Assembly: GCA_002371155.1 (NCBI GenBank)
Contig: DFGC01000012.1
Location: 1-61,531, forward strand
DNA length: 61,531 bases
Reading direction: 5' to 3'
Origin: Alphaproteobacteria bacterium UBA3760
Lineage (GTDB): Bacteria; Pseudomonadota; Alphaproteobacteria; Rs-D84
Made by a program: the position numbers and the translations under genes. The notes beneath the pieces are model-generated. The model did no database searches. It was given only the letters and a program-made list of their open reading frames with translations, and was not told the DNA's origin. This document shows, one piece after another, positions 1 to 61,531 of the stretch. Every line of letters starts with the position of its first letter. The stretch's first letter is position 1.

Positions 1-99
1 AACTGGGGAAAATCATGAAAAAATTGCGTATGTTCGATTCGTTAAAATTTGTGTTGGCGACCGTCGCGTGCACATTTATATTAAATGTCGCGCACGCGG
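1..99 (+). repeat. Inverted repeat copy 1 (RBS plus signal-peptide coding leader), partner at 61425..61523
   Basis: Manual alignment to reverse complement of the window end: about 14 mismatches in 99 nt, no gaps. Confidence 0.85.
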
Positions 100-1760
100 A
101 TGAAACGTGTGACACGCATTGGGAAAATTATGTTTCGGCCACGGGAACCGTTAGTCAAAATGGCACCCCGACACCAACAAATCCAATTGAACCAAAATTT
201 TATACCCAGGGAGAAATGGTTCTGCGTGCGGTTGGTAATGTTGCCGATTCATACGATGCCACAACTGGCAAAATCACCCGGCGTATTGGTGTCAAAGTGT
301 TTAATGGAACTGAAAGTTGGGGTATTAGTGAGATGTATTCTGGGACGTATAGGACATTTTGGCTGTATCCAGATGAAATAGGGGCCGTTAGGGTAACCAG
401 TAATATAAAAGCCCCAGTGCTTAGCAATTATTTTTCTGCGGCACCGATTGCGGGCGCCAACAATGCAACACAACGAGATAATACAATAAGCACAAATTCA
501 GTTGCACATTCACCTAATTCGACTTGGATTCGCACAAATGATTTTTCAACCGTGTCAGAGTTTAAATCATGGTTAAGTGCGCGTCATGCCGCAGGAAAAC
601 CGGTTGTTATGTATTATCAGTTGGCAACACCAGTGGAAGAAGATTGGACATCGACGCAGTATTGTGTTGAACCAATAAAAATCGCGACGACAAAATATAA
701 CGAACAACAATTTGCACCGGTGGAAACGGATTTAGATGCGGCGGTTGCGGCGGTGGATACTGTCGTGACCCAGACGATGACCCAGGCACAGCAAATAGAC
801 CAAATCGCGAATGAAAAACAAACCCGCCCAGATGAGTCTTGTCCGCCGTTCAAAAAATGTTTGCTGGTCGAGGACGAGGACGGCACGCCGCATTGGTATG
901 AAATATACGACCCGATAAACGATTTTTTAAGACCGATTTTGGCGGCGGCGGCATTGTCGGGCAACCAAGGCGCACCAGTGCAAACATCGCACAGCGATGG
1001 TTCAAATACAATTATAGATACATCGAATATTTTTTATAACGGCAGTGGCGCATTCAGGAAAAAATATATAGATAACAGCACATCGGCGGCCGATCGTCCG
1101 TTTGGTCCGACAACATTGGACCGGTGTGCGGATAATGCGACACGAACAACATCAACGGTAGATGCGGGGTTGTGTTATAATACGGGCGGAATGTTCCGCA
1201 CACTTACCGAGGGTTCGGATGACGATGCGGGTGAATGGGCATTGGTGTGGAACGGAAATGAGGGTGGCGAGAACTTAGGCATAACGCCGGGTGTGGTGTA
1301 TGGCGTTGCGAAATGCACATCGGTTGGACAACACACAACAGAAATAACCGGTGATGTGCAATCGGGGTCGGAATATTGGTGGCCGAAAAAATTAAATAAT
1401 TATGCGACATCGAATCCGACAACATTGGCGAGTTTGATAACCGAATACCCAAATTCAAATATCGAAACGGTATTTAATCAGCTGCCAAACCCGTATGGGA
1501 CCGAGGATAATCCGGAATACCCACGTGCGAACTATCGTAATTGTTGGTGCAAAATGACGGCGATAGGTGTGCCCGGTTCGGGTGATGATTTTGCCGAGCA
1601 AGCCGCCAATGGTTCAATAATGTCGGTTGCCGGGGGCGGTTGGGTCTTTGACGGCCCGAACACGTCGGCGACGGATTGTGCGCGCATCTGCGCGTACAAC
1701 TGCGCGTACCGCGTTCGGGCTGCCGCCGCGTTCCGCAAAAATGTTTTAACCGTGAGATAA
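15..1760 (+). CDS. Secreted modular protein: signal peptide, phage minor-tail-like N domain, conserved KIATTKY/coiled-coil core, Cys-rich C domain
   Basis: 581 aa ORF, RBS GGGGA, signal ending VAHA; motifs NGTPTP, ITRRIGVKVFNGTESW, FKSWL...YYQLATP resemble siphophage tail proteins; core shared with 60037..61509. Confidence 0.8.
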   Translation: MKKLRMFDSLKFVLATVACTFILNVAHADETCDTHWENYVSATGTVSQNGTPTPTNPIEPKFYTQGEMVLRAVGNVADSYDATTGKITRRIGVKVFNGTESWGISEMYSGTYRTFWLYPDEIGAVRVTSNIKAPVLSNYFSAAPIAGANNATQRDNTISTNSVAHSPNSTWIRTNDFSTVSEFKSWLSARHAAGKPVVMYYQLATPVEEDWTSTQYCVEPIKIATTKYNEQQFAPVETDLDAAVAAVDTVVTQTMTQAQQIDQIANEKQTRPDESCPPFKKCLLVEDEDGTPHWYEIYDPINDFLRPILAAAALSGNQGAPVQTSHSDGSNTIIDTSNIFYNGSGAFRKKYIDNSTSAADRPFGPTTLDRCADNATRTTSTVDAGLCYNTGGMFRTLTEGSDDDAGEWALVWNGNEGGENLGITPGVVYGVAKCTSVGQHTTEITGDVQSGSEYWWPKKLNNYATSNPTTLASLITEYPNSNIETVFNQLPNPYGTEDNPEYPRANYRNCWCKMTAIGVPGSGDDFAEQAANGSIMSVAGGGWVFDGPNTSATDCARICAYNCAYRVRAAAAFRKNVLTVR

Positions 1761-1850
1761 AAAATAATCTGGGGGGGGCATCGCTATGGATGCGCCGCGG
1801 TGGGGCCCGATACGCCGAGATGACGATATTTTCAACCATAAAAAATTAAA

Positions 1851-3116
1851 TTATGCGGCTTTTTTGGGTTCGGCAAATATTTCCATTGGTTGCTTTTTAC
1901 CCAAAACGACATCTTTATCGACAACGATTTCGGTTAAACCGTCCTTTTCTGGCGCATCGAACATCGGTTGCAACAGCAATTTTTCCAAAATACTGCGCAA
2001 ACCACGCGCACCCGTTTTGCGTTTCACCGCCAATTTTGCAATCTCGGTCAAACCATCCGCCGTCACCGTCAATTTCACACCATCTAAATCCAGCATGGCG
2101 GCGTATTGTTTCACAATCGCATTTTTCGGTTCGGTCAAAATTTTCACCAATGCGTCTTCATCCAAATCTTGCAGTGTGGCGATTATCGGCAAACGCCCAA
2201 TCAATTCAGGTATAATTCCGAACTTTACCAAATCTTGGGGTTCGACATCCGCCAAATGATTTTTTTCATCACGTTCCTGTTTTGATGCAACATCGGCACC
2301 AAATCCAATTCCGGCACGCATACTTTTACGATTACCAATAATTTTATTCAGTCCGTCAAATGCCCCACCACATATAAACAAAATTTTTGATGTATCCAAT
2401 TGAATTGTTGCCTCGCCCGGGTGTTTGCGTCCACCCCCGCCCGCCGGCACATTTGCGACGGTGCCTTCGACCAATTTCAATAATGCCTGTTGCACACCCT
2501 CGCCTGAAACATCGCGCGTAAGTGATGGATTTTCTGATTTACGTGAAATTTTATCGATTTCGTCGATGTATATAATTCCGCGACTGGCACGTTCGACATC
2601 AAAATTCGCATTTTGCAACAACCGCGATAAAACACTTTCCACATCATCACCAACATATCCGGCCTCGGTCAATGTGGTTGCGTCCGCAATCGCAAACGGC
2701 ACATCCAAAATTCGCGCCAATGTTTGTGCAAACAATGTTTTACCCGTTCCCGTCGGTCCAATCAATAACACATTAGATTTTTGGATTTCGACATCTGTAT
2801 TTTTTGTTGCCATATGACGTTTGTAATGATTATACACCGCCACCGACAACGCGCGTTTTGCGTCAACCTGGCCAATAATATATTCGTCCAAGAAATCATA
2901 AATTTGATGTGGGGTCGGTAATTTTGTTGCATCATTTTTAATTGCATTGCGTTGCAAATCATCCGCCATAATATCATTACACAGTGCGATACATTCATCG
3001 CAAATGCAAACATTACGACCACTGACCAACTTTTTAACCTCGTACACAGCCTTGCCACAAAACGAACAAAACTGATTATTTTTATCCGGTGAAGACACTT
3101 TTTTATCGTCGCTCAT
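1851..3116 (-). CDS. clpX: ATP-dependent Clp protease ATP-binding subunit ClpX
   Basis: CSFC..CDEC zinc finger, GPTGTGKT Walker A, IDEIDK, IGF loop. Confidence 0.98.
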
Positions 3117-3139
3117 ATCTCTTTAATCCCCATTAAAAA

Positions 3140-3721
3140 TTATTTACGAACCAAAATCCCATCAATTAAACCGAAATCTTTGGCGACATCCGCCGTCATC
3201 CAATTATTGCGTTCCATTGCATCGAACAATTCTTTTTCTTTGCGTCCGGTAAATTCAGCCATTTGTTTAATCAACGCCTTTTTCACGCGCACAGATTCTT
3301 TTAATTCAATTTCCATATCAGTCACCTGACCCCGCGTTCCAGACAATGGTTGATGAATCATAATCGATGTGTTTGGCAAAACGAAACGTTTTCCTTTCTC
3401 GCCCGCCGCCAATAACACAGATGCCATCGACGCAACCAAGCCCATACCAATTGTAGAAACCGGCGATTTAATATACTGCATCGTATCCATAATCGCCCAA
3501 CCGGCGGTCACATCACCACCGGGTGAATTTATATACATTGAAATATCTGCATTTGGATTTTCAGATTCCAACAATAACAACTGGGCAACAATGACATTTG
3601 CCATATTTGTTTCAATTTCGCCAGTCACCATAATAATTCTGTCGCGCAGCAATCGTGAATAAATGTCAAAAGACCGTTCGCCACGTGGCGATTCTTCTAT
3701 AACCATAGGTATCAAAGCCAT
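3140..3721 (-). CDS. clpP: ATP-dependent Clp protease proteolytic subunit
   Basis: [28 protein letters not shown] motifs; upstream of clpX. Confidence 0.98.
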
Positions 3722-3814
3722 ATCACACCCTTTTAATAAAATTCGTTATTTTTACATAATTATAGCACAAAAAAAAGCAGTTCGCAAATTTTCCGCCACT
3801 TTATTAAATATAAT

Positions 3815-4981
3815 CTATAAAGTTAAAATTTCAATAGCTGGCAAAGTGCCATTTTCGATAAATTCTAAAAATGCCCCACCACCGGTCGAAACAAATGTTA
3901 TATCATCGCGCACGCCCGCCGCATCCACGGCCGCAACCGTTTCGCCACCACCAACAACACTGACCAATCGCCCAGATTTAGTCTGTACCGCAATCGCACG
4001 CGCAACGCGAAAACTGGATTCGCCCCAAACCGCGCCCCACTCTGCCATGCCAAATGTCCCATTCCATATAACCGTCGCAGATTTTTCAATTTCCGCAATA
4101 TTACGGGTGGCGGTCATTGGTCCATCATCAATAATCACGTCCCCTTCCGCAATTTCATCCAATGTTTTATTTATCCGCACCGCAGATTTTTCAAATTTTT
4201 CCCCAACACCTTTATCAATGGGCATTAAAAATTTGCACCCATGCGCATCTGCAATTTTCATAATTTCACGTGCCACATCCGCCATATCCGGCTCATACAG
4301 TGAATTTCCAACCCGCGCCCCGCACGCATAATTAAATGTGGTTCCAATCGCGCCACCAACAATTACCGTATCCGCCAATTTGCATAATGTTTTCAACACA
4401 CCAATTTTTCCCGATACCTTGGCACCGCCAACAATCGCCGTCAATGGCCGCCTTGGGTTTTCCAGCAATCGCGAAATATTTTCCACCTCTGATTTCAGTA
4501 ATTCACCGGCGAACGCGGGCAAAATTTTCGTAACACCAACGGTTGATGCCGCCGCCCGATGCGATACCGCAAACGCATCATTTACAAACAAATCAAACCC
4601 ACGCGCCAGCGCACCCGCAAAACCGACGTCGTTTTCTTCTTCGCCCGCATAGAACCGAACATTTTCCAACAGCACAACATCAGAGTCCCGCATACCCGCC
4701 AAAATTTTTTTATCCAAACAATCATCAACAAATGGGATTTTCATGTAATCCGCAACCGGGCGCAACGATAATTCCGGGTTTGCCACACCCCCCGGCCGCC
4801 CCAGGTGCGCACACAACGCAACCCGCGCCCCAGCATCGCGCAATTTATTTATGGTCGGCATCGATTGTTCAATACGGAAAGTGTCCAAAATTTTTCCATT
4901 TTCGATTTGGACATTAAAATCCACCCGCAACAAAACATACTTGCCGCGGACAGAATTATAATCAACACTACGCAGTTGCAT
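3815..4981 (-). CDS. pgk: Phosphoglycerate kinase
   Basis: RVDFNV, HLGRP, LLENVRF, NDAFAVSHR, GGAKVSGK, STGGGAFLE. Confidence 0.97.
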   Translation of the reverse strand: MQLRSVDYNSVRGKYVLLRVDFNVQIENGKILDTFRIEQSMPTINKLRDAGARVALCAHLGRPGGVANPELSLRPVADYMKIPFVDDCLDKKILAGMRDSDVVLLENVRFYAGEEENDVGFAGALARGFDLFVNDAFAVSHRAAASTVGVTKILPAFAGELLKSEVENISRLLENPRRPLTAIVGGAKVSGKIGVLKTLCKLADTVIVGGAIGTTFNYACGARVGNSLYEPDMADVAREIMKIADAHGCKFLMPIDKGVGEKFEKSAVRINKTLDEIAEGDVIIDDGPMTATRNIAEIEKSATVIWNGTFGMAEWGAVWGESSFRVARAIAVQTKSGRLVSVVGGGETVAAVDAAGVRDDITFVSTGGGAFLEFIENGTLPAIEILTL

Positions 4982-4983
4982 TT

Positions 4984-5592
4984 TTATTTTCCTTCCAAAA
5001 TTCGCTTTACCGGACCAAATGTCCGCCGATAATGCTCATTTATACCATATTTTTTGATTGCTTGCAAGTGTTCCGGTGTTGGGTATCCGGCGTTCTTTTC
5101 CCAATGATACCCCGGATATTTTTGCGCCAATTTATGCATCAAACGGTCCCGCGATACTTTCGCCACAATGGACGCCGCCGCAATGGATAACGATTTCGCG
5201 TCCCCTTTGACAACCGCGCACCCATTCAAATTTTTCGGCACACGATTCCCGTCAATCAGGCAAAAATCCGGCACGCACCTCAGATTTGCAACCGCCCGTT
5301 CCATCGCACGCATCGACGCCCACAATATATTTAATTCATCTATTTCCGCGGGACTGCATTCACCCACCGCCCAAATCGTATTATGCGTTATCCAATCATA
5401 TGCCGCATCGCGCTGGGTCGCACTCATTTGCTTTGAATCGCGTATAACCACCGGAATTTCTATATCGCGCCGTGGAAAAATTACCGCAGATGCTACCACC
5501 GGCCCACACAATGGGCCGCGGCCTGCCTCGTCCACACCGGCGACAATACCGTCATGCATCAATTCAAAATTAAAATCTGGATTTGTATTCAT
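4984..5592 (-). CDS. rnhB: Ribonuclease HII
   Basis: GVDEAGRGPL, DSKQ, KGDAKS.SIAAASIVAKVSRD; start trimmed to MNTNPD. Confidence 0.95.
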   Translation of the reverse strand: MNTNPDFNFELMHDGIVAGVDEAGRGPLCGPVVASAVIFPRRDIEIPVVIRDSKQMSATQRDAAYDWITHNTIWAVGECSPAEIDELNILWASMRAMERAVANLRCVPDFCLIDGNRVPKNLNGCAVVKGDAKSLSIAAASIVAKVSRDRLMHKLAQKYPGYHWEKNAGYPTPEHLQAIKKYGINEHYRRTFGPVKRILEGK

Positions 5593-5708
5593 GATTATTA
5601 TCATAGCAAAATTTTCCAAAAAAAACATAATATTTTTAATTGACAAACGATTATACCGTGTAATAATACATGCCAGACAAAAAAACAGAAAAACCAAAGG
5701 ATTATAAA

Positions 5709-5852
5709 ATGCCAAATACCGCAGCAGTCAACGAGGCAACGGCCCCCCAAAAAACACAACAAACACCAAAAGACCCAAATTTTTATGCAAAAATGTTCGC
5801 AAAAATGGCAGAAACGATTTGTAGAACCACACGAAGCAATCTGGGGATGTAA
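5709..5852 (+). CDS. Small hypothetical protein
   Basis: Short ORF after a TTGACA at 5640, abutting the next ORF. Confidence 0.35.
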   Translation: MPNTAAVNEATAPQKTQQTPKDPNFYAKMFAKMAETICRTTRSNLGM

Positions 5853-5857
5853 TTTTT

Positions 5858-6343
5858 ATGCAAAAAATCCAGGTAAATTTACAACTCGACATTTCTGAAC
5901 CAGATACAGAAAAAATTACGGATTTGGTCGTATTATCAACTGCATTGGTTATAGAACAACAAACAATTAAACGTGCCGAAACATTTGGTGAAATTTTTAA
6001 TCACGGTTTGGCAATAACAAATTCCCTTGCTTTGATGCATGTTTTGCACAACACAACAAATAACAAGATTTTTTTCGTTGTGCTCTATATGCCATTGATA
6101 TTATTATTTGCAAAAATGGGTTTTACGCATACTAAACAAAAACAAATTGCCAAAAATGAATTAAACCGCACATCGGCACAAAACAACGCGTTAATTACCG
6201 TTTTGAAATCATCCAACAAACAAACCATCCATCAAATCGCCGAAACATATACCCAAGAAATCGGTGATACGCCAATCAATACCATAACAAAACACCAGGC
6301 AAACAATATAATTGGCCACATATTAATGCGGTATCAACGATAA
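5858..6343 (+). CDS. Hypothetical membrane protein
   Basis: 161 aa, two hydrophobic stretches, fills gap before convergent slt. Confidence 0.6.
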   Translation: MQKIQVNLQLDISEPDTEKITDLVVLSTALVIEQQTIKRAETFGEIFNHGLAITNSLALMHVLHNTTNNKIFFVVLYMPLILLFAKMGFTHTKQKQIAKNELNRTSAQNNALITVLKSSNKQTIHQIAETYTQEIGDTPINTITKHQANNIIGHILMRYQR

Positions 6344-6346
6344 AAA

Positions 6347-8071
6347 CTAAATCGACATACGATTTTCAATTTGATGTTGCACATATTCATCTTCACTGTT
6401 ATACAGTGGCCATTGCCCATTTGCCAATTCCTGCATAGATGTCAACGGTTGATTCAAACGCGCACGATACAACCATAAATTCGACAGAACGCGTTTTATA
6501 TATCCACGTGTTTCATACGCCGGAAAACTTTCAATATATAACAACGGGTCATATGTATTAAAATTCTTTTCAAATTTTTGGACATTACCAATCCCGGCAT
6601 TATACGCCGCCAACATTTTTATAATACTGTTATCTATTACCGGCTGTTGCAATAAATCAACGATATATTGCTGTCCCAAAAACATATTGTGTTCAGGTTT
6701 CGACATATCCATATCCGAAAACTTTATTTTATTTTTATGCGCAACCAAACGCGCCGTTCCCGGCATCAGTTGCATAACACCATTTGCCCCCACCACAGAT
6801 TTAGCCGTCGTTTTGAAACCACTTTCTTGTTTTGTAATTGCGAACAACAACGCGCGGTCAATTGACCAACCACCCATTGGTTCCCAATCTGGCAACGGAT
6901 ATTGCGCGGAATAAATAATATCATCATCTATTTCCAAAATTCCCCTTTCGCGAACGACACTGGCAATATGCAACGCCAACCGTGGCAACGCATACGCCGT
7001 TGCAACCGAATTTATCGCATGCAATGTTTTATCCGACGCATCCGCCGTTATCAAAGATTTCAAATACATTTCTGCACGAACATTTTGTCCAACCTGTAAT
7101 AATGCCAGCGCAATCCGCCCCAATTTCAATTCACGCAATGTCGCAATATCTTCATCGGTACAATCTTGCTCGAAAAATTCATACTCAGGCGTCCGTCCCA
7201 ACATCGTCGCAGACAATGCCCCATAAAACGCCATTGGATGTGCCGCACCAATTTCCCAGTATTTCTTGGCCGCCGACATATCATCATTTGCGTCCGCCGC
7301 GCGTCCCGCCCAAAATGCCGCCTCGACCTTGCGCGCGTCATTTATTTGTTCCAAATCCAAAATACGACCAAAATATTTTTCAGATTCCGCATATTTTGCC
7401 TCTTTATAATAAATCAGTCCCATTGTCCACAAACCATATTCACTGTTTGCGTCCGCCGCAACGAATCCCCATTTGCGTGCCAATTCCAATTCACCATTTG
7501 TATAATAAACATATGCCAAACGCCCCGCCAACCGACCATAATCAACCGACGACAACGCTTTTTTGAATTTTTTATCTTCTAAAATATTTCTGGCACGACG
7601 GGTTGCACCACTGCGAATCGCGCGTCTGAATGTGGTAATTTTTTTCTCGGTCTGTTTAGAATATTTTTTTGTCGTCCATGTTTCACTCTGTGCCGATTCG
7701 CCATGCATTTTCCCCGTCAGTATCGCATACACAATCGGATTTTTCACCTTGACCTTTTTTACCTTGGCGAATTTAGAAACACGCTCCGCACCCGGCATAT
7801 CGTAATATTTATTCATCCAATTTGATAATTCTTTGCCACTGGTGCGATATGATTTAGAAAAAAATCGTTGATATAAAACCTCGTTCATCAAAATTTTATC
7901 GGAAATTTTTGCCTCTAACTTTTTGGCGGCATCGATTTTTTCTTTATCTTGCAGCATAAAAATTTGTTGATACACATCCGCATCCGCGTCCGACAAAATA
8001 TCAATAGTCGGTCGTGCGAACGCATTGCCCGCAAAAAACAAACCGATTAAGATTACAAATATTTTTCTCAT
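6347..8071 (-). CDS. Soluble lytic murein transglycosylase (SLT domain)
   Basis: Signal peptide MRKIFVIL..AFA; helical repeats; KQESGF catalytic Glu, GVMQLMPGTA, AAYNAG, ETRGYIKRV. Confidence 0.92.
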   Translation of the reverse strand: MRKIFVILIGLFFAGNAFARPTIDILSDADADVYQQIFMLQDKEKIDAAKKLEAKISDKILMNEVLYQRFFSKSYRTSGKELSNWMNKYYDMPGAERVSKFAKVKKVKVKNPIVYAILTGKMHGESAQSETWTTKKYSKQTEKKITTFRRAIRSGATRRARNILEDKKFKKALSSVDYGRLAGRLAYVYYTNGELELARKWGFVAADANSEYGLWTMGLIYYKEAKYAESEKYFGRILDLEQINDARKVEAAFWAGRAADANDDMSAAKKYWEIGAAHPMAFYGALSATMLGRTPEYEFFEQDCTDEDIATLRELKLGRIALALLQVGQNVRAEMYLKSLITADASDKTLHAINSVATAYALPRLALHIASVVRERGILEIDDDIIYSAQYPLPDWEPMGGWSIDRALLFAITKQESGFKTTAKSVVGANGVMQLMPGTARLVAHKNKIKFSDMDMSKPEHNMFLGQQYIVDLLQQPVIDNSIIKMLAAYNAGIGNVQKFEKNFNTYDPLLYIESFPAYETRGYIKRVLSNLWLYRARLNQPLTSMQELANGQWPLYNSEDEYVQHQIENRMSI

Positions 8072-8072
8072 A

Positions 8073-8579
8073 TTAAAACAATGTTGTTTTTGGTAATTTA
8101 CACACGATGGCATTATCGTCATCCGCGGGTATTTGGTCAATGATTTTTTTGAAATCCGATATTTTGGAAAATTTACGATACACCGACACAAAACGCACAA
8201 ATGCAATCGGATCCAAATTCAGCAACGAATCCGACACCATTTGTCCCACTGCCGCAGACGAAACTGTTTCATCCGCATTTTCTGTTTCCAAACGCCGATG
8301 AATGGATGTCACCAATTTTTCGATTTGTTCATCCCCCACATCACGATTACGACACGCCAATTTAATACTGCGCGCCAATTTTTCCCGGTCAAACGGTTCC
8401 AATTTACCACTGTTTTTACGCACCATCAAATCACGCATTTGCACGCGTTCGACGGTTGTGAACCGCGCGCCGCACTGATTACAAACCCGCCGGCGCCGAA
8501 TAATTGCGTCTTCGATATCGGGGCGTGAATCCAACACGCGGCTATCAGTAGAATTACAGTATGGACATCTCATATCCAT
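8073..8579 (-). CDS. nrdR: Transcriptional repressor NrdR
   Basis: MRCPYC..DSRV.DSR, RRRRVC..CGARFTT.ER, ATP cone, AFVRFVSVYR. Confidence 0.97.
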   Translation of the reverse strand: MDMRCPYCNSTDSRVLDSRPDIEDAIIRRRRVCNQCGARFTTVERVQMRDLMVRKNSGKLEPFDREKLARSIKLACRNRDVGDEQIEKLVTSIHRRLETENADETVSSAAVGQMVSDSLLNLDPIAFVRFVSVYRKFSKISDFKKIIDQIPADDDNAIVCKLPKTTLF

Positions 8580-8748
8580 ATAAATTTAGCAATGAAAACG
8601 ACAAGTGTAAAGCATATTTTTTTACATAAAAATGCAAAAAAATTGTTTTTTCAAAAAAATCAAGCCTTTTTATTCATTTTTTTTGCCAAACACGAAAAAA
8701 AATCACCAAAAAATATGATAAAATATTACGCATAGGGATTGGGGAGAG

Positions 8749-9849
8749 ATGGAAAAATATCTGAATCAAATATTATCTGGCGATTGCATTGAAATAATGC
8801 GCAAAATGCCCGACGCGTCTGTGGACGCAATTTTCGCAGATTCCCCATACAATTTACAACTGGGCGAAAAAACATTATATCGCCCCGAAGACCAAACCGC
8901 CGCCCGCGCAGTGCGCGACGCATGGGATTCTTTTGCCAGTCCCGCCGCATACAACCAATTTTGTCGTGATTGGCTGCGCGAATGTAAACGCATATTAAAA
9001 CCCGACGGCGCAATGTGGGCAATCGGTTCATATCACAATATTTTCCAAATCGGCGCAATTATGCAAGACCTGGGGTTTTGGATTTTGAATGACATTGTTT
9101 GGGTAAAAACAAATCCTATGCCAAACTTTCGTGGAACGCGTTTTACGAACGCCCATGAAACATTGATTTGGGCGACACCAACAAAAACTGGCAAATACAC
9201 ATTTAATTATGAAACAATGAAGAAATTAAATGGCGGCAAACAAATGCGTTCAGATTGGAATTTGGACATATGCCTGGGGCACGAACGGATTAAGGGTGCC
9301 GATGGCAAAAGCCTGCATAACACACAAAAACCATTGACATTATTGCATCGCGTTATATTGTCATCGACAAAACCCGGCGACATAATATTGGACCCATTTA
9401 TGGGTTCTGGGACAACCGCCGCCGCCGCCAAAGAACTGGGGCGCCAATTCATCGGAATTGACCGCGACGAAACATATGTTGCCGCGGCACGCAAACGCGT
9501 CGCAAACACAACCCCCATAGATTTAACAAATATCGAGGTCACCAAACCCAAACGGGACGAGGTTCGTGTCGCATTCCGCGAACTTATCGATGCGGGATTA
9601 TTATATGTCGGCCAAACATTGGTCAGTCCCCGCGGCGAACGTGTTATGATTACACACGACGCACAATTGGCTCACACAATTTATGGCAAGGCATCTATCC
9701 ATGTTATGGCGGCGCGCATCCAACACAGTGTCAGTTTCAACGGTTGGGATTATTGGTCGGCACAAAAACGCGACGGCACATTGGTTCCAATCGACGATTT
9801 ACGTAAATATATCCGCGACATAAAATCAGGCATCAAAAAAGCCGCATAA
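8749..9849 (+). CDS. ccrM: CcrM-family beta-class N6-adenine DNA methyltransferase (motif IV reads DSPY)
   Basis: IGSYHNIF, WILNDIVWVKTNPMPNFRGTRFTNAHET, GKQMRSDW, DPFMGSGTT, CcrM-type C domain SIH...NGW. Confidence 0.92.
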   Translation: MEKYLNQILSGDCIEIMRKMPDASVDAIFADSPYNLQLGEKTLYRPEDQTAARAVRDAWDSFASPAAYNQFCRDWLRECKRILKPDGAMWAIGSYHNIFQIGAIMQDLGFWILNDIVWVKTNPMPNFRGTRFTNAHETLIWATPTKTGKYTFNYETMKKLNGGKQMRSDWNLDICLGHERIKGADGKSLHNTQKPLTLLHRVILSSTKPGDIILDPFMGSGTTAAAAKELGRQFIGIDRDETYVAAARKRVANTTPIDLTNIEVTKPKRDEVRVAFRELIDAGLLYVGQTLVSPRGERVMITHDAQLAHTIYGKASIHVMAARIQHSVSFNGWDYWSAQKRDGTLVPIDDLRKYIRDIKSGIKKAA

Positions 9850-10146
9850 CCCATACGATTTTTCAACATCAAAAATCAAAAAACTCTGCCTGCTCCGCCT
9901 GTGTGACCTGCCACCCATAGCATCGCAGATGCGAAGGGTGGGCGGCCGCAGCTGGGAGCCTCGATACACAATAATAAAAATCAAACAAAAGAAAGGGCAG
10001 CTGGATTCCCTCACGCGGCACACATCGTGTGCCGGTTGCGGGGAAACCGTGACGATTGTGGTGCGTTAACACTTCCACAATCTACTTGTTTTCGAACCGG
10101 CCGCTTGCGCGACGTGGCACCGCCCCATCGCCACAGAACCAAAAAT

Positions 10147-10670: not shown

Positions 10671-10702
10671 AAAAAAACACCGCCAAATTGGCGGTGTTTT
10701 TT
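10671..10702. terminator. Bidirectional intrinsic terminator
   Basis: A-run caccgcc-aaatt-ggcggtg T-run. Confidence 0.8.
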
Positions 10703-10767
10703 TGCATTCATACCTATCAAAAAACACTGCAACAATTTGGCATAATTATGTCCAAAGGGGGGCTTAC

Positions 10768-11844
10768 ATGAAAAAAATTATTTATATCTTATGCACAATA
10801 ACATTGGCAACACCGGCATTTGCATGCACCGGAATCACCCTGCACGCGCGCGATGGCGGGGTTGTTTCCGCCCGCACAATTGATTGGGCAAAAACCGACA
10901 CCGACAACATTTACACCATCGTTCCACGCGGTCATGTGTCGCGGTCTTTTTTACCCGACGGCACCCAGAACGGTTTAGAATTTACCGCAAAATATGGATT
11001 TGTGGGACTGGGCCCTGAACGTCCCGAATTTGTTGTTGACGGCACGAACGAGGCGGGCCTGAACGCGGGATTATTTTATTTCCCAGATTATGGCGAATAC
11101 AAAAAATATGACGAGGCCGCACGCGATATTTCCATCGCCGATTTGCAAGTCGTATCATGGATACTATCTAATTTTGCAACAATTGACGAAGTCCGCGAAA
11201 ACATAAACAATATTCGCGTGATAAATATTTATCCTGATTCTTCGACTGTTCATTGGCGCATCACTGAACCCGGCGGTCGCGTTGTTGTTATGGAAATTAT
11301 CAACGGTGAACCGGTATTTCACGAAGACGAAATCGGCGCAATTGCAAACGCGCCTGGCTTTGATTGGCAATTGACGAACCTGAACAATTATGTAAATTTA
11401 CGCGCCGGCACCGCCGAACCATTAAAATTGGGGCCAGACACCCTGACATCTTTCAGTGGCGGAACGGGGCTGCTGGGGCTGCCGGGTGATTTTTCATCCC
11501 CGTCGCGTTTTGTTCGTGCCGCATTTTTTGGCAATATGGTGGATAAACAACAAAACACAGAATCCACCGTTCCAATTGCATTTCACATATTGAATAACCT
11601 GGATGTTCCATTTGGCACAACATACAACAACGGGCGCGCACCAACAAATATGCCCTCCTCCACCCAATGGACAATTGCCAGCGACCTGGACAACAAAGTT
11701 TTATATTATCACACAATGTTCAACCGCACGATTCGCAAAATTGATATGAACGAAATCAATTTCGAAACCGTTCCATTTCAATTCAGTCCACTGGACGATG
11801 TAAAACGCGAAACGATGATATCTGTTCAAATAAATAAAGAATAA
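10768..11844 (+). CDS. Choloylglycine hydrolase / penicillin V acylase family Ntn hydrolase, secreted
   Basis: Signal peptide then CTGI (N-terminal nucleophile Cys), RTIDW, GLFYFP, LPGDFSSPSRFVRAAF. Confidence 0.92.
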   Translation: MKKIIYILCTITLATPAFACTGITLHARDGGVVSARTIDWAKTDTDNIYTIVPRGHVSRSFLPDGTQNGLEFTAKYGFVGLGPERPEFVVDGTNEAGLNAGLFYFPDYGEYKKYDEAARDISIADLQVVSWILSNFATIDEVRENINNIRVINIYPDSSTVHWRITEPGGRVVVMEIINGEPVFHEDEIGAIANAPGFDWQLTNLNNYVNLRAGTAEPLKLGPDTLTSFSGGTGLLGLPGDFSSPSRFVRAAFFGNMVDKQQNTESTVPIAFHILNNLDVPFGTTYNNGRAPTNMPSSTQWTIASDLDNKVLYYHTMFNRTIRKIDMNEINFETVPFQFSPLDDVKRETMISVQINKE

Positions 11845-13204: not shown

Positions 13205-15505
13205 TTATTCTGATTCCGATTTATTAAAATCCACATAGTTGCCTAAAATATTTCCCATTGTGCCACCCGCCGCACCAATACCAACCGCACCCAATCCGGT
13301 ATCTATACGATTTTGTGTATTGGTTGCATCATCGGCAATACGCGATATATCGTTTGGATTTCCAACCGACGCACGATAAAGCGATGCATATGTTCCATTT
13401 TGCACACCCGACCCAACATCATCATATAAACCGGTATATTCGCGTTTGAATACAACCGCCGATTCAATTCCCGGCGCATATCCCAATGCATCTTTGCGTT
13501 CATGCAAATCATCCGCCAACGCAACATATTCGCTGTATAAACCCGTCAAAGCATTTTCGCCACCAACATTTACCGATTTTTCATTAAAACGATACCGCCG
13601 CCCACCAACACGACATTGCATTTTTTGTGTATATGCCGCCATATCCGCCGCCGCCGCGGCGTCCGCCGATTGTGCCGCCAAACCAGACGCCAATTGCATC
13701 CCACCAATTCCCGTCGCCCCAATCGTCGCACCCGACATCAGACGGTTTTTCAACGACATTTCGTTTTCCCGCGCAGACGCATATTCTTCTTCGGCGGCAC
13801 GAATACCATCATCAACACACGCGCCGTTTTCCAAACGATACCCGCGCGCACAGTGCACCGGACGACACACACCATTTACAAATTCGAACCTGTCCGCATT
13901 TGGAAATTGTGCTTTTTCTGATTCATTACATTCGGTCCTGGGTTTTTCCGCGCTTTTCCATTTTGCAACCAAAGTTTTTTTACCACCATTGTTTTCATCA
14001 AACATAAAAGTCCTTTGCGGATTAACACACGCCGCGTCAACACACCAACCATCAAAAACATAACCCGATCGCTGGGGTTCGCAATCAACCGTAAATTGTT
14101 GCCCCACGATATAATTTTTGGGTGCATTATCACAACCGGTTCCACCGCCCAAGTTATAATTTATTGCATAGACCTCTTCTTCGGGTGCCTCTTGCTCTGA
14201 ACTCGCCTGATTTGTTATTACACTGGTATCACCCGCCTTGCACGTTGGATTAAACGAATTTTCATTTGCATCGGGAACAAAGCCTGGCTCACACCATGTC
14301 CTGTAATTACACTGGGATTGGCCATCACTGCCGACCAATTCGCATTTTGCTTTTGCCCCAGGCGCACATTCCGCACATGCAACACACTCACCATTTTGCA
14401 ATATATAACCATTCTGACAAGATTTCGGACGACACACACCACCTACAAATTCGAATTCTTTTACATTTGAAAATTTTGCTTTTTCTTCATCGCTACACTC
14501 TCTTCTCTCTTTTGCTACCGCCGTCCATTTTGCATAAAATGTTTTATCACCCATATCCGTGTCGCCAATCACACGATTCTTTTGTGGGTCATTCAAATCA
14601 TTTGTCGTACACCATCCATCAAAAACAAATTCTGATTTGGTTGGTTGACATTCAATCTTTGTCTGTGCCCCATATGTATGGGTCAAACTGTCGCACCCAT
14701 TCCCACCATTTAAATTTAATGTTATTTGATACATATTTGGTGAACACGACGGATTGTATTTACCGGCATTCTGTTCGTTTCCATATCCGGTCTCGCACGA
14801 TGTTTTATATCGACAATTTTTCAACCCATCACTGCCGGTCATTTCACAATTTGCATGCGTCGGCGAACATGATTGACATGGAACACATACCGCATCATCC
14901 GTATTATCATGTTCCAACACATACCCAGAAACACACTTTGTCGGCATACAAATCACATCTGTATTCTTATCTAAATCTTGGGTATGCGCTCTATTCAATT
15001 CGTGATTTATGCCTGATTGCGCATTTAACCGACCCAATTCTGACTCTGTACATTTATTGTCAGATTTCACACAATCATCTGTTGTAATCGTAATCCCATT
15101 CAAAGTATGCTTTTTCAATTCATATCCAGATTTACAAAAACTTTCATGCCGACAAATTCCTTTGGAACGCGTTGGTCTGCCCATTGAATCCTTGTAATAA
15201 GACAAATAATATCCGTTTTCGTTTCTGCACGATTTTCTGACACAGGTTAAAACATTCTTGCCATTATTTTTTTGTATCTGACATGTTCCTGTTTTTGTGT
15301 TATCACTGCATGAATCGCCATTTTTTTTACCAACACACAATTTATCATTCATACCACCACCAGATTGCGCCCCCGAATACCCGGTTTCTATTCCGCTGGC
15401 ATTCACTGTTCTGGTTGGCCCGCTGTTTGTATTTGCGGCATACACGCCACCAACGCAAAATGCGCAAAACACAAACGCGACAAAAACGCGACAAATGCGA
15501 AACAT
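13205..15505 (-). CDS. Secreted Cys-rich surface protein with two InlB B-repeat-like (Listeria-Bacteroides) domains and conserved Gly-rich C-terminal module
   Basis: Signal MFRICRVF..VYA; ITLNLNGG..GYVFDGW..FYAKW motifs; CxPxxCxxGYxL repeats; C terminus shared with next gene. Confidence 0.8.
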   Translation of the reverse strand: MFRICRVFVAFVFCAFCVGGVYAANTNSGPTRTVNASGIETGYSGAQSGGGMNDKLCVGKKNGDSCSDNTKTGTCQIQKNNGKNVLTCVRKSCRNENGYYLSYYKDSMGRPTRSKGICRHESFCKSGYELKKHTLNGITITTDDCVKSDNKCTESELGRLNAQSGINHELNRAHTQDLDKNTDVICMPTKCVSGYVLEHDNTDDAVCVPCQSCSPTHANCEMTGSDGLKNCRYKTSCETGYGNEQNAGKYNPSCSPNMYQITLNLNGGNGCDSLTHTYGAQTKIECQPTKSEFVFDGWCTTNDLNDPQKNRVIGDTDMGDKTFYAKWTAVAKERRECSDEEKAKFSNVKEFEFVGGVCRPKSCQNGYILQNGECVACAECAPGAKAKCELVGSDGQSQCNYRTWCEPGFVPDANENSFNPTCKAGDTSVITNQASSEQEAPEEEVYAINYNLGGGTGCDNAPKNYIVGQQFTVDCEPQRSGYVFDGWCVDAACVNPQRTFMFDENNGGKKTLVAKWKSAEKPRTECNESEKAQFPNADRFEFVNGVCRPVHCARGYRLENGACVDDGIRAAEEEYASARENEMSLKNRLMSGATIGATGIGGMQLASGLAAQSADAAAAADMAAYTQKMQCRVGGRRYRFNEKSVNVGGENALTGLYSEYVALADDLHERKDALGYAPGIESAVVFKREYTGLYDDVGSGVQNGTYASLYRASVGNPNDISRIADDATNTQNRIDTGLGAVGIGAAGGTMGNILGNYVDFNKSESE
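13326..13795. repeat. 470-bp direct repeat copy 1 (partner 15674..16143)
   Basis: Ungapped, visually >90% identical, encodes EEEYASARENEMSLKN...ISRIADDA. Confidence 0.9.
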
Positions 15506-15567
15506 TTCCCCCTGCAATTCTATCAGAATTATTATATCACAAAACACACAATTTCCAAACGACGAAT

Positions 15568-18210
15568 TTATTGTTTATTTGGCCTATTTATTATCAAATT
15601 TCCACCAACACCGCTCGCCGCGCCGACGCCAGCCACCACCGCACCGGTCTTGATACGCGTTTCTGATTTTGCCGCATCATCGGCAATACGCGATATATCG
15701 TTTTCATTTCCAATCGACGCGCGATAAAGTGATGCATATGTTCCATTTTGCACACCCGACCCAACATCATCATATAAACCGGTATATTCGCGTTTGAATA
15801 CAACCGCCGATTCAATACCGGGCGCATATCCCAACGCGTCTTTGCGTTCATGCAAATCATCCGCCAACGCAACATATTCGCTGTATAAACCCGTCAAAGC
15901 ATTTTCACCACCAACATTTACCGATTTTTCATTAAAACGATACCGCCGCCCACCAACCCTGCATTGCATTTTTTGCGTGTACGCCGCCATATCCGCCGCC
16001 GCATCCACGTCCGCCGATTGTTCGGCAATCCCAGACGCCAATTGCATTCCACCAATTCCCGTCGCCCCAATCGCCGCACCCGACATCAGACGGTTTTTCA
16101 ACGACATTTCGTTTTCCCGCGCAGACGCATATTCTTCTTCGGCCCCCTTTACTTGTTCTTGTAATTTTTTATCGACGCAAACACCGCGACGCAGTATAAA
16201 TTCATCACTTTCACATTCCGATGGCACACATTTTCCATCACGCACAACTAATGTTTTTGCGTGTAATGCAGATTTATTGACATCATCACACATCCAAACG
16301 CACTTGGTCGGATTTTTCGCATTATCAAATTTATATTCATCAATGCACTTTGTCGGAACACAGATTTCACCCCGCACCGCAACCGTTTCCGCATTCAACA
16401 AACCCGGTGCATTCGCATCACAAATTTCAACACACACGCCACTATCCAAATTATACCCATTGACACAATCCGTCGGAACACATTGATTTTCAATCCAATT
16501 TCCACTCGTCGCGTGTAAATTATTTAATTCCGTTGCGGAACATTCACGCGCAAATTTTGCGTGATATGTTTTTGCACCACTTGTCCCCGCCGCAATTTCA
16601 ATTTTAGATTGTGGCGAATCACAATTCGCATCATTTTCACACCAACCCAAAAAACGGAATCCATCGGCAACATCCGTTGGAACATGCTCTATCGTTATGC
16701 CCCTATCATACGCATATTCATAAGTTTTTGATTGTGTTCCACCCGCACCATTATTCCATGACAAAGTAATTTGATATGTTTTGGCATTTGTGCAATATGC
16801 ATTATACGCCCCACTATTCACAATTGTTTCATATCCGGTTTTGCATGCCGTTTCATAATGACATTGCTCATTCACCATACTTAAAACACATGTTGCATTT
16901 GTATTATCTTTGCACGGCAAACAACACAATTTGCCTCCCGTCAGTTCATATTCACCAACACACCCCGTCGGGACACATTGATTATTTTCTGGGCGACCAT
17001 TTAACGCATGCAATCCCGCCAAAACATCCGCGCTGCAAATTTCAACACACACCGCATCATCCGTTCCACCCTTTTCCAAACGATATCCGTCTTTGCACTC
17101 CGTCGGGACACATGGCAACCCTGGTTTTTGCGCTGTTTTCTTTCTTCCTTTCTTTGCATGCAACCGTTTCAAAAAATCATCATTACAAGCATTCTCAACA
17201 ACCAGCGCTTCAACCACATTCTTTTTGATAACCGGTTCTGGTTCCAAATTTATTGTTAAATTTTCACCACAATTTACAATCTGACTTTTATACGTTGAAA
17301 ACCCTACTTGTAATTTGCAATTACTTGGGACATTACTATCCTTAAAATCAAATTTTCCGTCAATATCCGTAGGATGCACCCTGCCAGACGTTCCGGATAA
17401 CTTATCACCGTTTTCATCAACAAAAAATACCGTTGCCCCAGGCAACCCTACCCCATCTTCATCCAACACAACACCACTGACCCGTATTGTTCCGGTCCCC
17501 GTCCGCGCACTGGACGCACCACGCGCCACAACATTTCTGGTATTCTCAACACTTTCTGATTTTTTTGTTTCAACCTTCTTATCGTCCGATTTTAATTGTT
17601 CGGTTGAATTTGACTTTTGTTCCGTATTCGTATTTTCCGATTCCGTGGGCGCAACCGTCGCCACACTTGCGGATTTCTGTGCTGTGGGCGCACTTTCTGT
17701 CTTTGCCGGTTTTTTCGCCGATTCAGGATGCAATTCCGCATATGTTTTTACGCCTTTTTCAATCAACAATTTTTCTATATTTTTACACGGTTTATCATAT
17801 CCATCGCTTTGTCCTTGTTCATTCTTACTTGTACACACCGAATCATTATTTATATGCTCGCGAACAAAGTCCAACAATGTGCCTTTTTTTGTTCCAAACC
17901 CCTGCACAACGGGATAATTTATCTCCGCATTTATATTCGCACCACGATTTACAAACTCTTCAACAATTTTATCACGTCTATTATTACCACAACATTCCGC
18001 AACAGCCAATTCTATTCCAGACATATTTTTATATGTCGGATTTGATATTTTTGCATTGAGCATCTCTGGGTTCTTGTTTAATAAATCCCGAACCCCAGAC
18101 ACATCATCACGCATAATCGCTTTTTCCAAACTAACCGATGCGCCCAACACCGGCGCATGAAACGCGCACACGGCAATCATTATAAAAAAAGCACGATAAA
18201 AACGACCCAT
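15568..18210 (-). CDS. Secreted protein: ankyrin-like N domain, carboxypeptidase-regulatory-like domain, Cys-rich repeats, InlB B-repeat-like domain, conserved C-terminal module
   Basis: Signal peptide; NRGANINA; VSGVVLDEDGVGLPGATV..TDIDGKF; repeated CVPTxCxxxY; paralogue of 13205..15505. Confidence 0.8.
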   Translation of the reverse strand: MGRFYRAFFIMIAVCAFHAPVLGASVSLEKAIMRDDVSGVRDLLNKNPEMLNAKISNPTYKNMSGIELAVAECCGNNRRDKIVEEFVNRGANINAEINYPVVQGFGTKKGTLLDFVREHINNDSVCTSKNEQGQSDGYDKPCKNIEKLLIEKGVKTYAELHPESAKKPAKTESAPTAQKSASVATVAPTESENTNTEQKSNSTEQLKSDDKKVETKKSESVENTRNVVARGASSARTGTGTIRVSGVVLDEDGVGLPGATVFFVDENGDKLSGTSGRVHPTDIDGKFDFKDSNVPSNCKLQVGFSTYKSQIVNCGENLTINLEPEPVIKKNVVEALVVENACNDDFLKRLHAKKGRKKTAQKPGLPCVPTECKDGYRLEKGGTDDAVCVEICSADVLAGLHALNGRPENNQCVPTGCVGEYELTGGKLCCLPCKDNTNATCVLSMVNEQCHYETACKTGYETIVNSGAYNAYCTNAKTYQITLSWNNGAGGTQSKTYEYAYDRGITIEHVPTDVADGFRFLGWCENDANCDSPQSKIEIAAGTSGAKTYHAKFARECSATELNNLHATSGNWIENQCVPTDCVNGYNLDSGVCVEICDANAPGLLNAETVAVRGEICVPTKCIDEYKFDNAKNPTKCVWMCDDVNKSALHAKTLVVRDGKCVPSECESDEFILRRGVCVDKKLQEQVKGAEEEYASARENEMSLKNRLMSGAAIGATGIGGMQLASGIAEQSADVDAAADMAAYTQKMQCRVGGRRYRFNEKSVNVGGENALTGLYSEYVALADDLHERKDALGYAPGIESAVVFKREYTGLYDDVGSGVQNGTYASLYRASIGNENDISRIADDAAKSETRIKTGAVVAGVGAASGVGGNLIINRPNKQ
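15674..16143. repeat. 470-bp direct repeat copy 2
   Basis: See copy 1. Confidence 0.9.
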
Positions 18211-24512: not shown

Positions 24513-24540
24513 AGAACAAAAACAACACGTATGGAACACC

Positions 24541-24860: not shown

Positions 24861-24879
24861 ATAAAATTTAATTTATTTC

Positions 24880-40026: not shown

Positions 40027-40154
40027 TGATTACTCCTTTTTGTTTCTGCCCCAGATTCCTGGGGATTTATCGACACACCATAACCTGGTATTTCTATCAG
40101 TATTATGGGACTTTTACCAAACTTTCCCTATTATTCCAGAAAATTCACCATTTT

Positions 40155-60005: not shown

Positions 60006-60036
60006 AAACAAAACACGAAACAATAACAAAAACAAA

Positions 60037-61509
60037 TTACATATCCGGGCCGGCGGTAAAAGTTCCCGTTCCCGCATTGGTAAAGAATTGCCCCGACACC
60101 ATATCATACATACCAACGACACCCGATGAATTTTTTGCCGGGATACCATTAAATACTAATTTATTATTATCGTTATATATTTTTACATATCTCCAAGAAG
60201 AACTACTTTTATTATAACTTGATGTTGTTTTGTCGTTATTTGTTTTACCTATCCACAAAGATAAATCTGAATTTGAAAAAGATTCTCCTGCCAAATTATT
60301 AGATTTTAATACATCATTTATATACAGCCCATCTTTTGTTATTTTATAATTATAAAACGTATTTGTTGTAACATCCAAATTTGATATAACTGCATTCATT
60401 CCGGTTCCACCTTTACCCCAAAACGAATGCCCAGAACTGTTTGCTAATCCAAATTGAGCTCCCCAAACAGTAGAACTCCAAATACCAGACCCCGCGCCAA
60501 AAAAATAATCCCCAGCCTTTGGAACAGACATTTCAAATTGAGCAGACCAATTCCAATTCGTGGCTACGATTCCGGTATCAATCCATGAATTTCCATCCGT
60601 TTGTAAATACTGCAATTCCGTGTATCCGGCGGGGAGTGCATGCGCGACACCATTTGCACCCGCAATCGGATACCAATGCGGGGTGCCGTCTTCATCCTCG
60701 ACCAATAAACAGTATTTCGCCGTGCATCCCTCGTCCGGGCGGGTTTGCTTTTCATTCGCAATTTGGTCTATTTGCTGCGCCTGACTCATCGTCTGGGTCA
60801 CGACAGTATCCACCGCCGCAACCGCCGCGTCTAAACGCGTTTCCACCGGCGCAAATTGTCGTTCGTTATACCGCGTCGTTGCAATTTTGATTGATACCGG
60901 CAGCCCCGCGATGAATTCACCCGTGCCCGCATTGGTATGAAACGCAGTTTCTGGATTTGCATCCGCCAAATCATACATACCCAACACACCATCGCTATCA
61001 CGCCGTGCCGGTATACCGTCAAATACTAAACTATCATTTTTTGAAGCCTTGTAATAGTAAATTTTAACATTTTTATTTTTATAATTAGTACCACTACTGT
61101 TGTTAAGATTAAATAAATACAACATAGAGGACCCCACCCTACCGTTTGTATATGTTGTGCCATTGGTTTCGTTCGTAAAATACCATCTGGTGTCCAAAAC
61201 ATTTTGCTTTATAATGTAAACCCCAGGTTCACTTGTACCATAACGCCTATCTTTTACACCTACCTGAGATGCACCGTTCACAAACATAAAACCTGATGAA
61301 TCATTCACAGTTTCAAATTTTAATTCCATATAATCAATCGTTGCTTCGTTCACATTAGTATTAATCCATTGTGTTCCGGTGGATTCGATGTATTCCAATT
61401 CGGTATATCCGGCGGGGAGTGTTGCCGCATGGGCGACATTTAATATAAACATGCATGTGACGGCCGCCAACACTAATTTTAACGAATCGAATATACGCAA
61501 AAATTCCAT
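60037..61509 (-). CDS. Secreted modular protein: signal peptide, two phage-tail/ConA-like 'LPAGYTELEY' domains flanking the KIATT core
   Basis: 490 aa; LPAGYTEL.Y...G..WI.T..., GIPA...G..GMYD...F.TNAGTG.F.AG twice; core shared with 15..1760. Confidence 0.82.
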   Translation of the reverse strand: MEFLRIFDSLKLVLAAVTCMFILNVAHAATLPAGYTELEYIESTGTQWINTNVNEATIDYMELKFETVNDSSGFMFVNGASQVGVKDRRYGTSEPGVYIIKQNVLDTRWYFTNETNGTTYTNGRVGSSMLYLFNLNNSSGTNYKNKNVKIYYYKASKNDSLVFDGIPARRDSDGVLGMYDLADANPETAFHTNAGTGEFIAGLPVSIKIATTRYNERQFAPVETRLDAAVAAVDTVVTQTMSQAQQIDQIANEKQTRPDEGCTAKYCLLVEDEDGTPHWYPIAGANGVAHALPAGYTELQYLQTDGNSWIDTGIVATNWNWSAQFEMSVPKAGDYFFGAGSGIWSSTVWGAQFGLANSSGHSFWGKGGTGMNAVISNLDVTTNTFYNYKITKDGLYINDVLKSNNLAGESFSNSDLSLWIGKTNNDKTTSSYNKSSSSWRYVKIYNDNNKLVFNGIPAKNSSGVVGMYDMVSGQFFTNAGTGTFTAGPDM

Positions 61510-61523
61510 GGTTTTCCCCAGTT
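61425..61523 (-). repeat. Inverted repeat copy 2 (leader shared with 1..99)
   Basis: See copy 1. Confidence 0.85.
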
Positions 61524-61531
61524 CTCTCTCA

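Follow-up and report, generated by a model that had tools for sequence, protein, structure and literature searches.

The window analysed here is a 61,531-nucleotide (nt) stretch of Alphaproteobacteria bacterium UBA3760 (contig DFGC01000012.1, positions 1 to 61,531, forward strand), which opens and closes with two genes for modular, exported proteins, named A (15..1760, plus strand, 581 amino acids (aa)) and B (60037..61509, minus strand, 490 aa). Our best explanation, to which we give a probability of roughly 55%, is that these genes encode phase-variable, recombination-shuffled and probably trimeric adhesins, each placed behind a switch of its own. A and B would thus be two of at least five paralogs in a lineage-specific family of Sec-exported modular binding proteins, whose constant core (five heptads, a disulfide loop and a β-hairpin) would oligomerise, probably as a trimer, and display variable heads in the manner of a collectin or a phage receptor-binding protein. 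Outside the cytoplasm the proteins would bind partner cells or host glycans in the role of adhesins or lectins, a kind of binding that metabolically dependent bacteria would need. The repertoire would gain diversity through homologous recombination within its conserved parts, namely leader, core and upstream cassette, and the upstream cassette would serve as an invertible switch turning single paralogs on and off. The family may thus give these bacteria a means of changing their binding partners.

Genes A and B share a leader and a core

Both open reading frames (ORFs) are present as the first-pass annotation described them. As gene B lies on the minus strand, the segments common to A and B appear in the window as inverted repeats, of which the repeat finder returned three: 1-99 against 61425-61523 (99 nt, 86%), 673-836 against 60730-60893 (164 nt, 88%) and 852-899 against 60670-60717 (48 nt, 85%). 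BLASTP of A against B aligned only residues 1-28 and residues 213-297 of A with 206-282 of B (E = 4e-39), and no significant similarity was detected in the remaining regions. The two methods thus confirm that the proteins share a leader and a core (~80 residues) between unrelated flanks. Nucleotide identity is 84.5% in the leader and 88.5% in the core. Among the 52 core codons compared, 10 differ synonymously and 4 non-synonymously; since 10 of the 14 differing codons are synonymous, the core is maintained by protein-level selection and not by very recent copying between A and B.

Two features had been overlooked. The two domains on either side of the core of B are of a single type and have diverged from each other (repeat D13), and the constant 5′ part does not stop at the ATG: it reaches ~260 nt further upstream, outside the window at either end. 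The contigs L001 and L004, 100% identical to window positions 1-10049 and 59587-61531 respectively, carry these upstream parts. The features are as follows.

1..14, plus strand: last 14 nt of the shared upstream cassette of gene A (cassette alignment)
15..98, plus strand: gene A signal peptide, aa 1-28, MKKLRMFDSLKFVLATVACTFILNVAHA (84.5% nt identity to the B leader)
99..659, plus strand: gene A module X, aa 29-215, a beta-rich head with a GTPTPTNPIEP motif, predicted to be related to phage virion proteins (AlphaFold2, Foldseek)
660..908, plus strand: gene A constant core, aa 216-298 (BLASTP, repeat finder, AlphaFold2, core profile)
909..1760, plus strand: gene A module Z, aa 299-581 and stop, a Cys-rich C-terminal module modelled as alpha/beta (AlphaFold2)
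60037..60660, minus strand: gene B module Y2, aa 284-490 and stop, modelled as a LamG/ConA-like jelly roll (AlphaFold2, Foldseek against PDB)
60661..60894, minus strand: gene B constant core, aa 206-283 (BLASTP, repeat finder)
60895..61425, minus strand: gene B module Y1, aa 29-205, modelled as a LamG/ConA-like jelly roll, a diverged copy of Y2 (D13, AlphaFold2, Foldseek)
61426..61509, minus strand: gene B signal peptide, aa 1-28 (BLASTP, alignment)
61510..61531, minus strand: last 22 nt of the shared upstream cassette of gene B (cassette alignment)
L001 4207-4467, outside the window: upstream cassette of gene A (cassette alignment)
L004 9740-10000, outside the window: upstream cassette of gene B (cassette alignment)

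An undescribed family confined to gut Alphaproteobacteria

Searches with A and B as queries retrieved 292 and 940 relatives respectively, all of them unnamed proteins whose stated sources are metagenome-assembled genomes (MAGs) of gut Alphaproteobacteria. A profile of the core, a kind of search that the first-pass annotation had proposed for this genome and related MAGs, was run against 1.84 billion representative proteins and matched 342 clusters (50% identity), of which 324 lie at E ≤ 1e-10, with exactly one core per protein; from this the core emerges as a discrete, taxonomically narrow module. The family is confined to uncultured gut Alphaproteobacteria, namely Ca. Enterousia and relatives of the order Rs-D84, a widespread lineage in the gut of humans, ruminants, horses and birds with genomes of 0.75-1.0 Mb, few biosynthetic pathways and a predicted dependence on partners (PMC12306168).

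When one genome per species was scanned with a core alignment of 7 closer sequences, 72 core loci were found in 8 of 185,579 genomes. These counts are lower bounds, since the scan relied on just two peptide patterns and many of the loci lie at contig ends.

Ca. Enterousia onthequi: 25 core loci
RUG14746 (rumen MAG): 14 core loci
RUG13870 (rumen MAG): 13 core loci
RUG13827 (rumen MAG): 10 core loci
Four further MAGs: 1-4 core loci each

The window organism itself carries at least five copies (A, B, P0006, P0009 and P0163). A, B and P0006 are found on contigs of matching coverage (93-99x) in sample ERZ12302850, and A, P0009 and P0163 co-occur in sample ERZ28612945. With at least five copies here and 10-25 in relatives, and with flanks that vary, the family departs from the two or three copies with fixed flanks that had been named as the outcome speaking against a diversifying system.

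No match to proteins A and B was obtained in Pfam, NCBIfam and PHROG scans, none to the core in Pfam, NCBIfam and the PDB, and none in PDB sequence searches with three profiles. Pfam assigned no family to ten diverse relatives, save a Flg_new repeat in one protein. A literature search found no paper describing the family. The proposal that it is new thus holds: the family is undescribed and not yet in any library, being currently invisible to Pfam, NCBIfam and, for A and B, PHROGs.

Heads are exchanged around the core

An N-terminus resembling a signal peptide, basic and then hydrophobic, is present in 255 of the 287 family proteins that start with M (~89%), which suggests that the family is exported by a Sec-type leader. 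Each protein follows one plan, with a signal peptide, at least one N-terminal head, a single core and zero to two C-terminal heads. Mapping of modules in 219 relatives gave ~50 architectures, including Y-C-Y, X-C-Y, W-X-C, X-C-Z, Y-C-Z, Y-X-C-Y and X-X-C-Y-Y (C, core) as well as Y-C followed by a repeat-rich C-terminal module. The constant leader and core with swappable flanks, proposed from A and B, is therefore general, and it extends to syntenic loci, at which the heads differ between species:

Locus convergent with ClpX-ClpP: window, X-C-Z; RUG13870, W-X-C; RUG14746, u-C-Y
Locus upstream of rpsL-rpsG: window, Y-C-Y; RUG13870, Y-W-u-X-C; RUG14746, not recovered

The loci are thus old and the heads are not.

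Closer relatives show where the exchanges fall. In contig L078 the Y2 head of B is found unchanged in its DNA (100% identity, ~615 nt); the core before it shows 35 mismatches, and the N-terminal head is unrelated to that of B. P0121 resembles B at 40% in Y1, 84% in the core and 88% in Y2, and P0122 and P0123 show the reverse, with 92-93% in Y1, 80% in the core and 35-39% in Y2, where the C-terminal head is a different one. Close relatives (70-83% identity) combine module Z with X, with Y or with further N-terminal modules. The breakpoints of the DNA mosaics fall at the core.

The first-pass annotation had conceived of a combinatorial system. Interchangeable heads largely bear this out; a programmed cassette system is only a possible one, all copies being complete genes. 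No silent promoterless cassettes were seen, and every complete locus has its own start codon, leader and upstream cassette.

Two rearranged contexts stand out. In a strain whose flanking genes are 96.3% identical (L079 1-1814 against L001 3932-4524), the locus of A is occupied by P0122, a different family member with a B-like N-terminal head, in the opposite orientation. A single inversion between the leaders, cores or repetitive extragenic palindromic (REP)-like elements of A and B was considered for this arrangement, and no simple model fits. An identical 619-aa protein, P0204, stands behind two upstream neighbourhoods (L124/L125 and L126/L128, with Peptidase_M23 and a SurA-like gene). The P0204 contigs converge inside the upstream cassette, which suggests exchange between cassettes of different loci.

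A predicted coiled-coil core between lectin-like and phage-like heads

The core reads, in order, C-x3-IKIATTxYN, a helix of five heptads, KQTRP, a CPxxKKC loop and the hairpin LLVEDxDGxPHWYEI. In the AlphaFold2 model of A the helix spans residues 231-266 (36 residues) and the strands 282-286 and 292-296; helix and hairpin are also present in the model of B. The a positions of the heptads, in gene A numbering, are F233, L240, V247, T254 and I261, the d positions are V236, A243, V250, Q257 and L264, and the e positions are hydrophobic too. Among 120 sequences this hydrophobic a/d/e pattern is conserved, with many beta-branched residues, and T254 (a), Q257 (d) and the motif C276-P-x-x-K-K-C282 are invariant. 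Beta-branched residues at a and d together with buried polar T and Q are typical of trimeric coiled coils. As modelled, the core probably oligomerises the protein, and a trimer is the probable state.

Both modules Y of B were modelled as beta jelly rolls, with Foldseek matches in the PDB down to E = 1.7e-5 at probabilities of 0.95-1.0. The matches include the tandem LamG/LNS domains of neurexin (LNS L2-L3, 1.7e-5) and laminin (LG4-5, 5.5e-4), and further agrin G domains (TM 0.5-0.6 over the target), lectin domains of sialidases and a Bacteroides carbohydrate-binding protein. At the sequence level, module Y gives no match to Pfam Laminin_G. On the strength of the models, module Y is assigned a LamG/ConA-like lectin fold.

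Foldseek of model A against the PDB returned nothing (best E = 1.6). Against viral models, the same model gave 15 matches with E ≤ 1e-3 at probability 1.0, comprising tail fibre, BppU-domain and virion structure proteins and SP-D-like proteins of coiled coil plus lectin. At the sequence level, X/W modules of the relatives P0015, P0039 and P0012 match phrog_11541 (6e-12), phrog_19519 (neck protein, 8.5e-8, the alignment reaching the start of the core) and phrog_23208 (virion structural protein, 5.8e-4). X/W modules are thus related to phage virion proteins in predicted fold and, weakly, in sequence. The fibre lead of the first-pass annotation gains from these modules and from the predicted heptad helix and hairpin.

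A phage or prophage setting would be expected if the genes belonged to prophages, gene transfer agents or tailocins and encoded their tail fibres or appendages, a reading for which the virion-related X/W modules and the core of coiled coil plus hairpin would speak. The copies are single and scattered, with ClpX/ClpP, rpsL/rpsG, RNase J, acetate kinase, rpoD and SmpB as neighbours; no phage genes lie near the family copies examined, and tblastn of A and B against 50,697 phage records gave no match. Sec signal peptides on ~89% of members and 10-25 copies per genome of less than 1 Mb argue in the same direction, and we regard this origin as very improbable.

The proteins might also be effectors secreted against competitors, for instance lectin-like bacteriocins or polymorphic toxins, with heads that target the competitor cells and with Z or other C-terminal modules that are toxic. 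A constant N-terminal part followed by variable C-terminal modules recalls polymorphic toxins, the targeting modules are similar to phage receptor-binding proteins, and the Cys-rich module Z is without a fold match. Set against this, the family shows no known toxin domain and no pattern of adjacent small immunity-like genes, its neighbours being housekeeping genes. Many members terminate at the core, among them most copies of E. onthequi, which have no C-terminal module, and N-terminal heads are as variable as C-terminal ones. We consider such a role improbable.

A candidate inverton upstream of the family genes

The most conserved part shared by A and B lies before the start codon. The cassettes of A and B are identical at 251 of 261 nt, and at 183 of 185 from the first site (see below) to the ATG. 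Between paralogs the cassettes are 96-99% identical, compared with just 84-88% for leader and core. Within the cassette, the 19-nt sequence AAAACCAAGGTTTTTTTGC is paired with its exact reverse complement at a distance of 82 nt. These paired sites are found 66-185 nt before the ATG in A, B, P0006, P0009, P0121 and P0163, and three other species have paired AAACCTAGGTTT palindromes 109-119 nt apart in their place. Each upstream site is itself a near-perfect palindrome. In 362 kb scanned, 41 of 43 sites stand directly upstream of family ORFs; the 61.5-kb window holds no AAACCWWGGTTT site (0.01 expected by chance), and no further sites occur elsewhere in the 22 kb of L134, around P0163.

The segment between the sites has a common orientation at ~35 loci and is inverted at 4 (L116, L103, L012 and L133), with the flanks unchanged. 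Comparison of L012 with L014 gave 93/98 matches for the segment as reverse complement and 58/98 in the same orientation. L133 represents the P0163 gene of the window organism; P0009, found on that scaffold too, has the common orientation. Inversion took place independently in three or more lineages and is seen in four assemblies from different projects, with breakpoints that coincide exactly with the paired sites. A consensus scan placed a sigma-70-like promoter, TTGCAA-17-TATCAT, across the gene-proximal site. In RUG13870 the predicted −35 element lies inside the invertible part and would be replaced upon inversion. As judged from sequence, the cassette is a candidate inverton before the family genes, and this upstream switch is the feature that most suggests a system.

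Three observations near the cassette stand apart from this. An integrase-like gene with Arm-DNA-binding and central domains lies 6 kb from B (L004 3068-4069); it was considered as the invertase and set aside, having no recognisable catalytic domain and no copies at other family loci. A 33-aa upstream ORF in the cassette was rejected as coding, since it is not conserved (early stop in L080). A 1.1-kb metagenome contig (L081 327-593) reads distal-site-segment-site-distal*, with the gene-distal flank on both sides, which could be a product of deletion or of recombination between loci, or a chimera.

Repeats of this kind raise the question of whether mosaics and inversions alike are artefacts of assembly. 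Contigs often break at family genes, at the ends of the window as at many scanned loci; the window stops 14 and 22 nt short of the two start codons, within the multi-copy cassette repeat. The contigs L003, L005 and L131 all begin 54 nt before the ATG, and the odd structure of L081 adds to the suspicion. Yet the same proteins and contexts recur at 100% identity in independent assemblies, and the inversions come from four assemblies of different projects. An inverted contig moreover needs spanning reads, because at 19-30 nt the inverted sites stay below the length of the final k-mers given in the contig identifiers (k141). We give this explanation hardly any credence.

Adhesins or fast-evolving paralogs

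A more serious contender, although still unlikely in our judgement, is an ordinary fast-evolving paralog family of exported lectin-like proteins, serving for example glycan capture in the periplasm or the medium. Shuffling would then be a by-product of duplication, the palindromes would be operators of dimeric regulators, and the inversions rare fixed accidents. Near-perfect palindromic sites are typical of regulator binding sites, and a number of further results count in favour of such paralogs and against switched adhesins. Just 4 of ~39 loci are inverted, and no single locus was recovered in both orientations from the same sample by cross-comparison of metagenome contigs and by look-ups of P0204, P0009, P0006 and P0163, in which contigs with the same neighbours are collapsed; the four inverted loci could therefore be fixed evolutionary inversions. 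In the window species the predicted −35 and −10 hexamers are symmetric and thus the same in both orientations. No recombinase linked to the sites was found near the family loci, the search having covered contigs. Protein A is identical across three assemblies and protein B likewise across three, so that shuffling of the coding part would be evolutionary and not rapid.

The same holds for the display of the proteins. No membrane anchor, outer-membrane translocator or sorting signal was found, and no Pfam family for a YadA-type β-barrel anchor is present in A, B or the ten diverse relatives; a periplasmic or released location is compatible with this. The AlphaFold2 models, built from family alignments, are monomers of moderate quality (pLDDT 67 for A and 70 for B), and pLDDT is below 50 in the core helix of both. 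Module Z, with pLDDT mostly 80-90, has neither a fold nor a sequence match in the PDB.

What tips the balance toward phase-variable, shuffled adhesins is the evidence that paralogs under operator control would leave aside: at least three independent inversions with breakpoints exactly at the paired sites, a cassette (99%) more conserved than the coding sequence downstream of it, the heavy investment of 10-25 copies in genomes of less than 1 Mb, and the recent exchange of a head at 100% DNA identity.

A bolder version of the adhesin explanation, which we offer as tentative, has domesticated phage receptor-binding modules deployed as 5-25 exported trimeric adhesins, each behind a miniature inverton and all served by one global recombinase. 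If so, a cell would display one or few specificities at once and could switch its partner or host glycan, while recombination in the shared leader, core and cassette would keep yielding new combinations of heads. The family would then be the cellular counterpart of phage host-range switching, the main host interface of the lineage, and a clear case of phage receptor-binding modules recruited to a cellular function. The family makes up several percent of the genome and is an obvious candidate for the interface with whatever feeds these bacteria. It also offers handles for experiment: the heads for ligand tests, the core for oligomerisation, and the 120-nt switch for scoring in existing metagenomic reads.

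Other features of the window

GC-rich REP-like elements (58% against 43% for the window) lie at 59100-60000, downstream of B, and upstream of A (L001 3941-4206). Their copies are 97-99% identical, cause spurious ORFs, and are places at which contigs break. The upstream neighbour of A (L001 2604-3872) encodes a Cys-rich exported protein of 416-422 aa without a Pfam match; the gene is kept at the locus of A in the 96%-identical strain (L079).

Two adjacent large paralogs of 780 and 880 aa (13205-15547 and 15568-18210, minus strand) have signal peptides and share 300 nt at 89%; one of them carries Listeria-Bacteroides (Flg_new) repeats. Both are preceded by a shared promoter-like motif, which recurs a third time at 40128 (repeat D6). 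Three further large ORFs on the minus strand (25914-29153, 33047-35320 and 36543-39329; 1079, 757 and 928 aa) begin with what resembles a signal peptide and match no Pfam family. If A, B and the 780/880-aa pair are counted with them, exported proteins without assigned function occupy ~27% of the window.

Between enolase and tRNA-Leu (24527-24867) lie three tandem 101-nt units, each with an internal hairpin, and a fourth copy (84%) is found at 40206-40304 near rplQ/rpoA; the unit matches no Rfam family, Rfam returning three tRNAs only for the window. A gene of the choloylglycine (bile-salt) hydrolase family (10702-11844, plus strand) fits the gut habitat.

Comparison with known systems

In their modules the proteins come close to phage receptor-binding proteins and tail fibres, such as the BppU-type baseplate proteins of siphophages; the X/W modules match phage virion proteins by fold and, weakly, by sequence. 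Both have a coiled coil with a small β-hairpin after it and exchange modules at conserved linkers, and T4 fibritin, a phage fibre with exchangeable modules, may offer in its foldon a parallel for the core hairpin. Unlike phage fibres, the family has Sec leaders, is encoded by single chromosomal genes next to housekeeping genes and lacks a virion-attachment domain. By analogy only, the family resembles the collectins (SP-D, mannose-binding lectin), in that a coiled-coil neck would present lectin-fold heads, and one of the viral models matched by A bears the annotation of an SP-D-like coiled coil plus lectin; the heads are LamG/ConA-like and not C-type lectins, there is no collagen region, and heads stand on both sides of the neck.

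With the trimeric autotransporter adhesins (YadA, BadA) the family has in common the signal peptide, modular heads, a coiled coil and expansion in host-associated Proteobacteria, but neither the C-terminal β-barrel anchor nor YadA-type head and stalk motifs, and its helix comprises just ~five heptads. Like Anaplasma msp2/p44 and Neisseria pilE/pilS, it has conserved blocks flanking variable ones and mosaic alleles, while a single expression site with silent promoterless cassettes is replaced by copies that are all complete. The family therefore lies outside trimeric autotransporter adhesins, phage fibres and silent-cassette conversion systems.

The closest parallel in regulation is with the P35/Mpl lipoproteins of Mycoplasma penetrans and the invertible-promoter loci of Bacteroides. 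According to PMC2268961, in the part that cites Horino 2003 and Coyne 2003, the mpl family of M. penetrans has 38 genes, each with its own invertible promoter, and invertons also operate in Bacteroides. The present proteins are unrelated to Mpl and are not lipoproteins, being built of phage-like and LamG-like modules around a constant core. The host is an alphaproteobacterium, the candidate switch is known here from differing loci, and in the window species the predicted −35/−10 would survive inversion. The likeness lies in the layout: as with P35/Mpl, a variable exported multigene family is scattered in a small genome, and as in both systems, each gene has directly upstream its own short segment bounded by inverted repeats, whose common site sequence would allow one recombinase to act globally.

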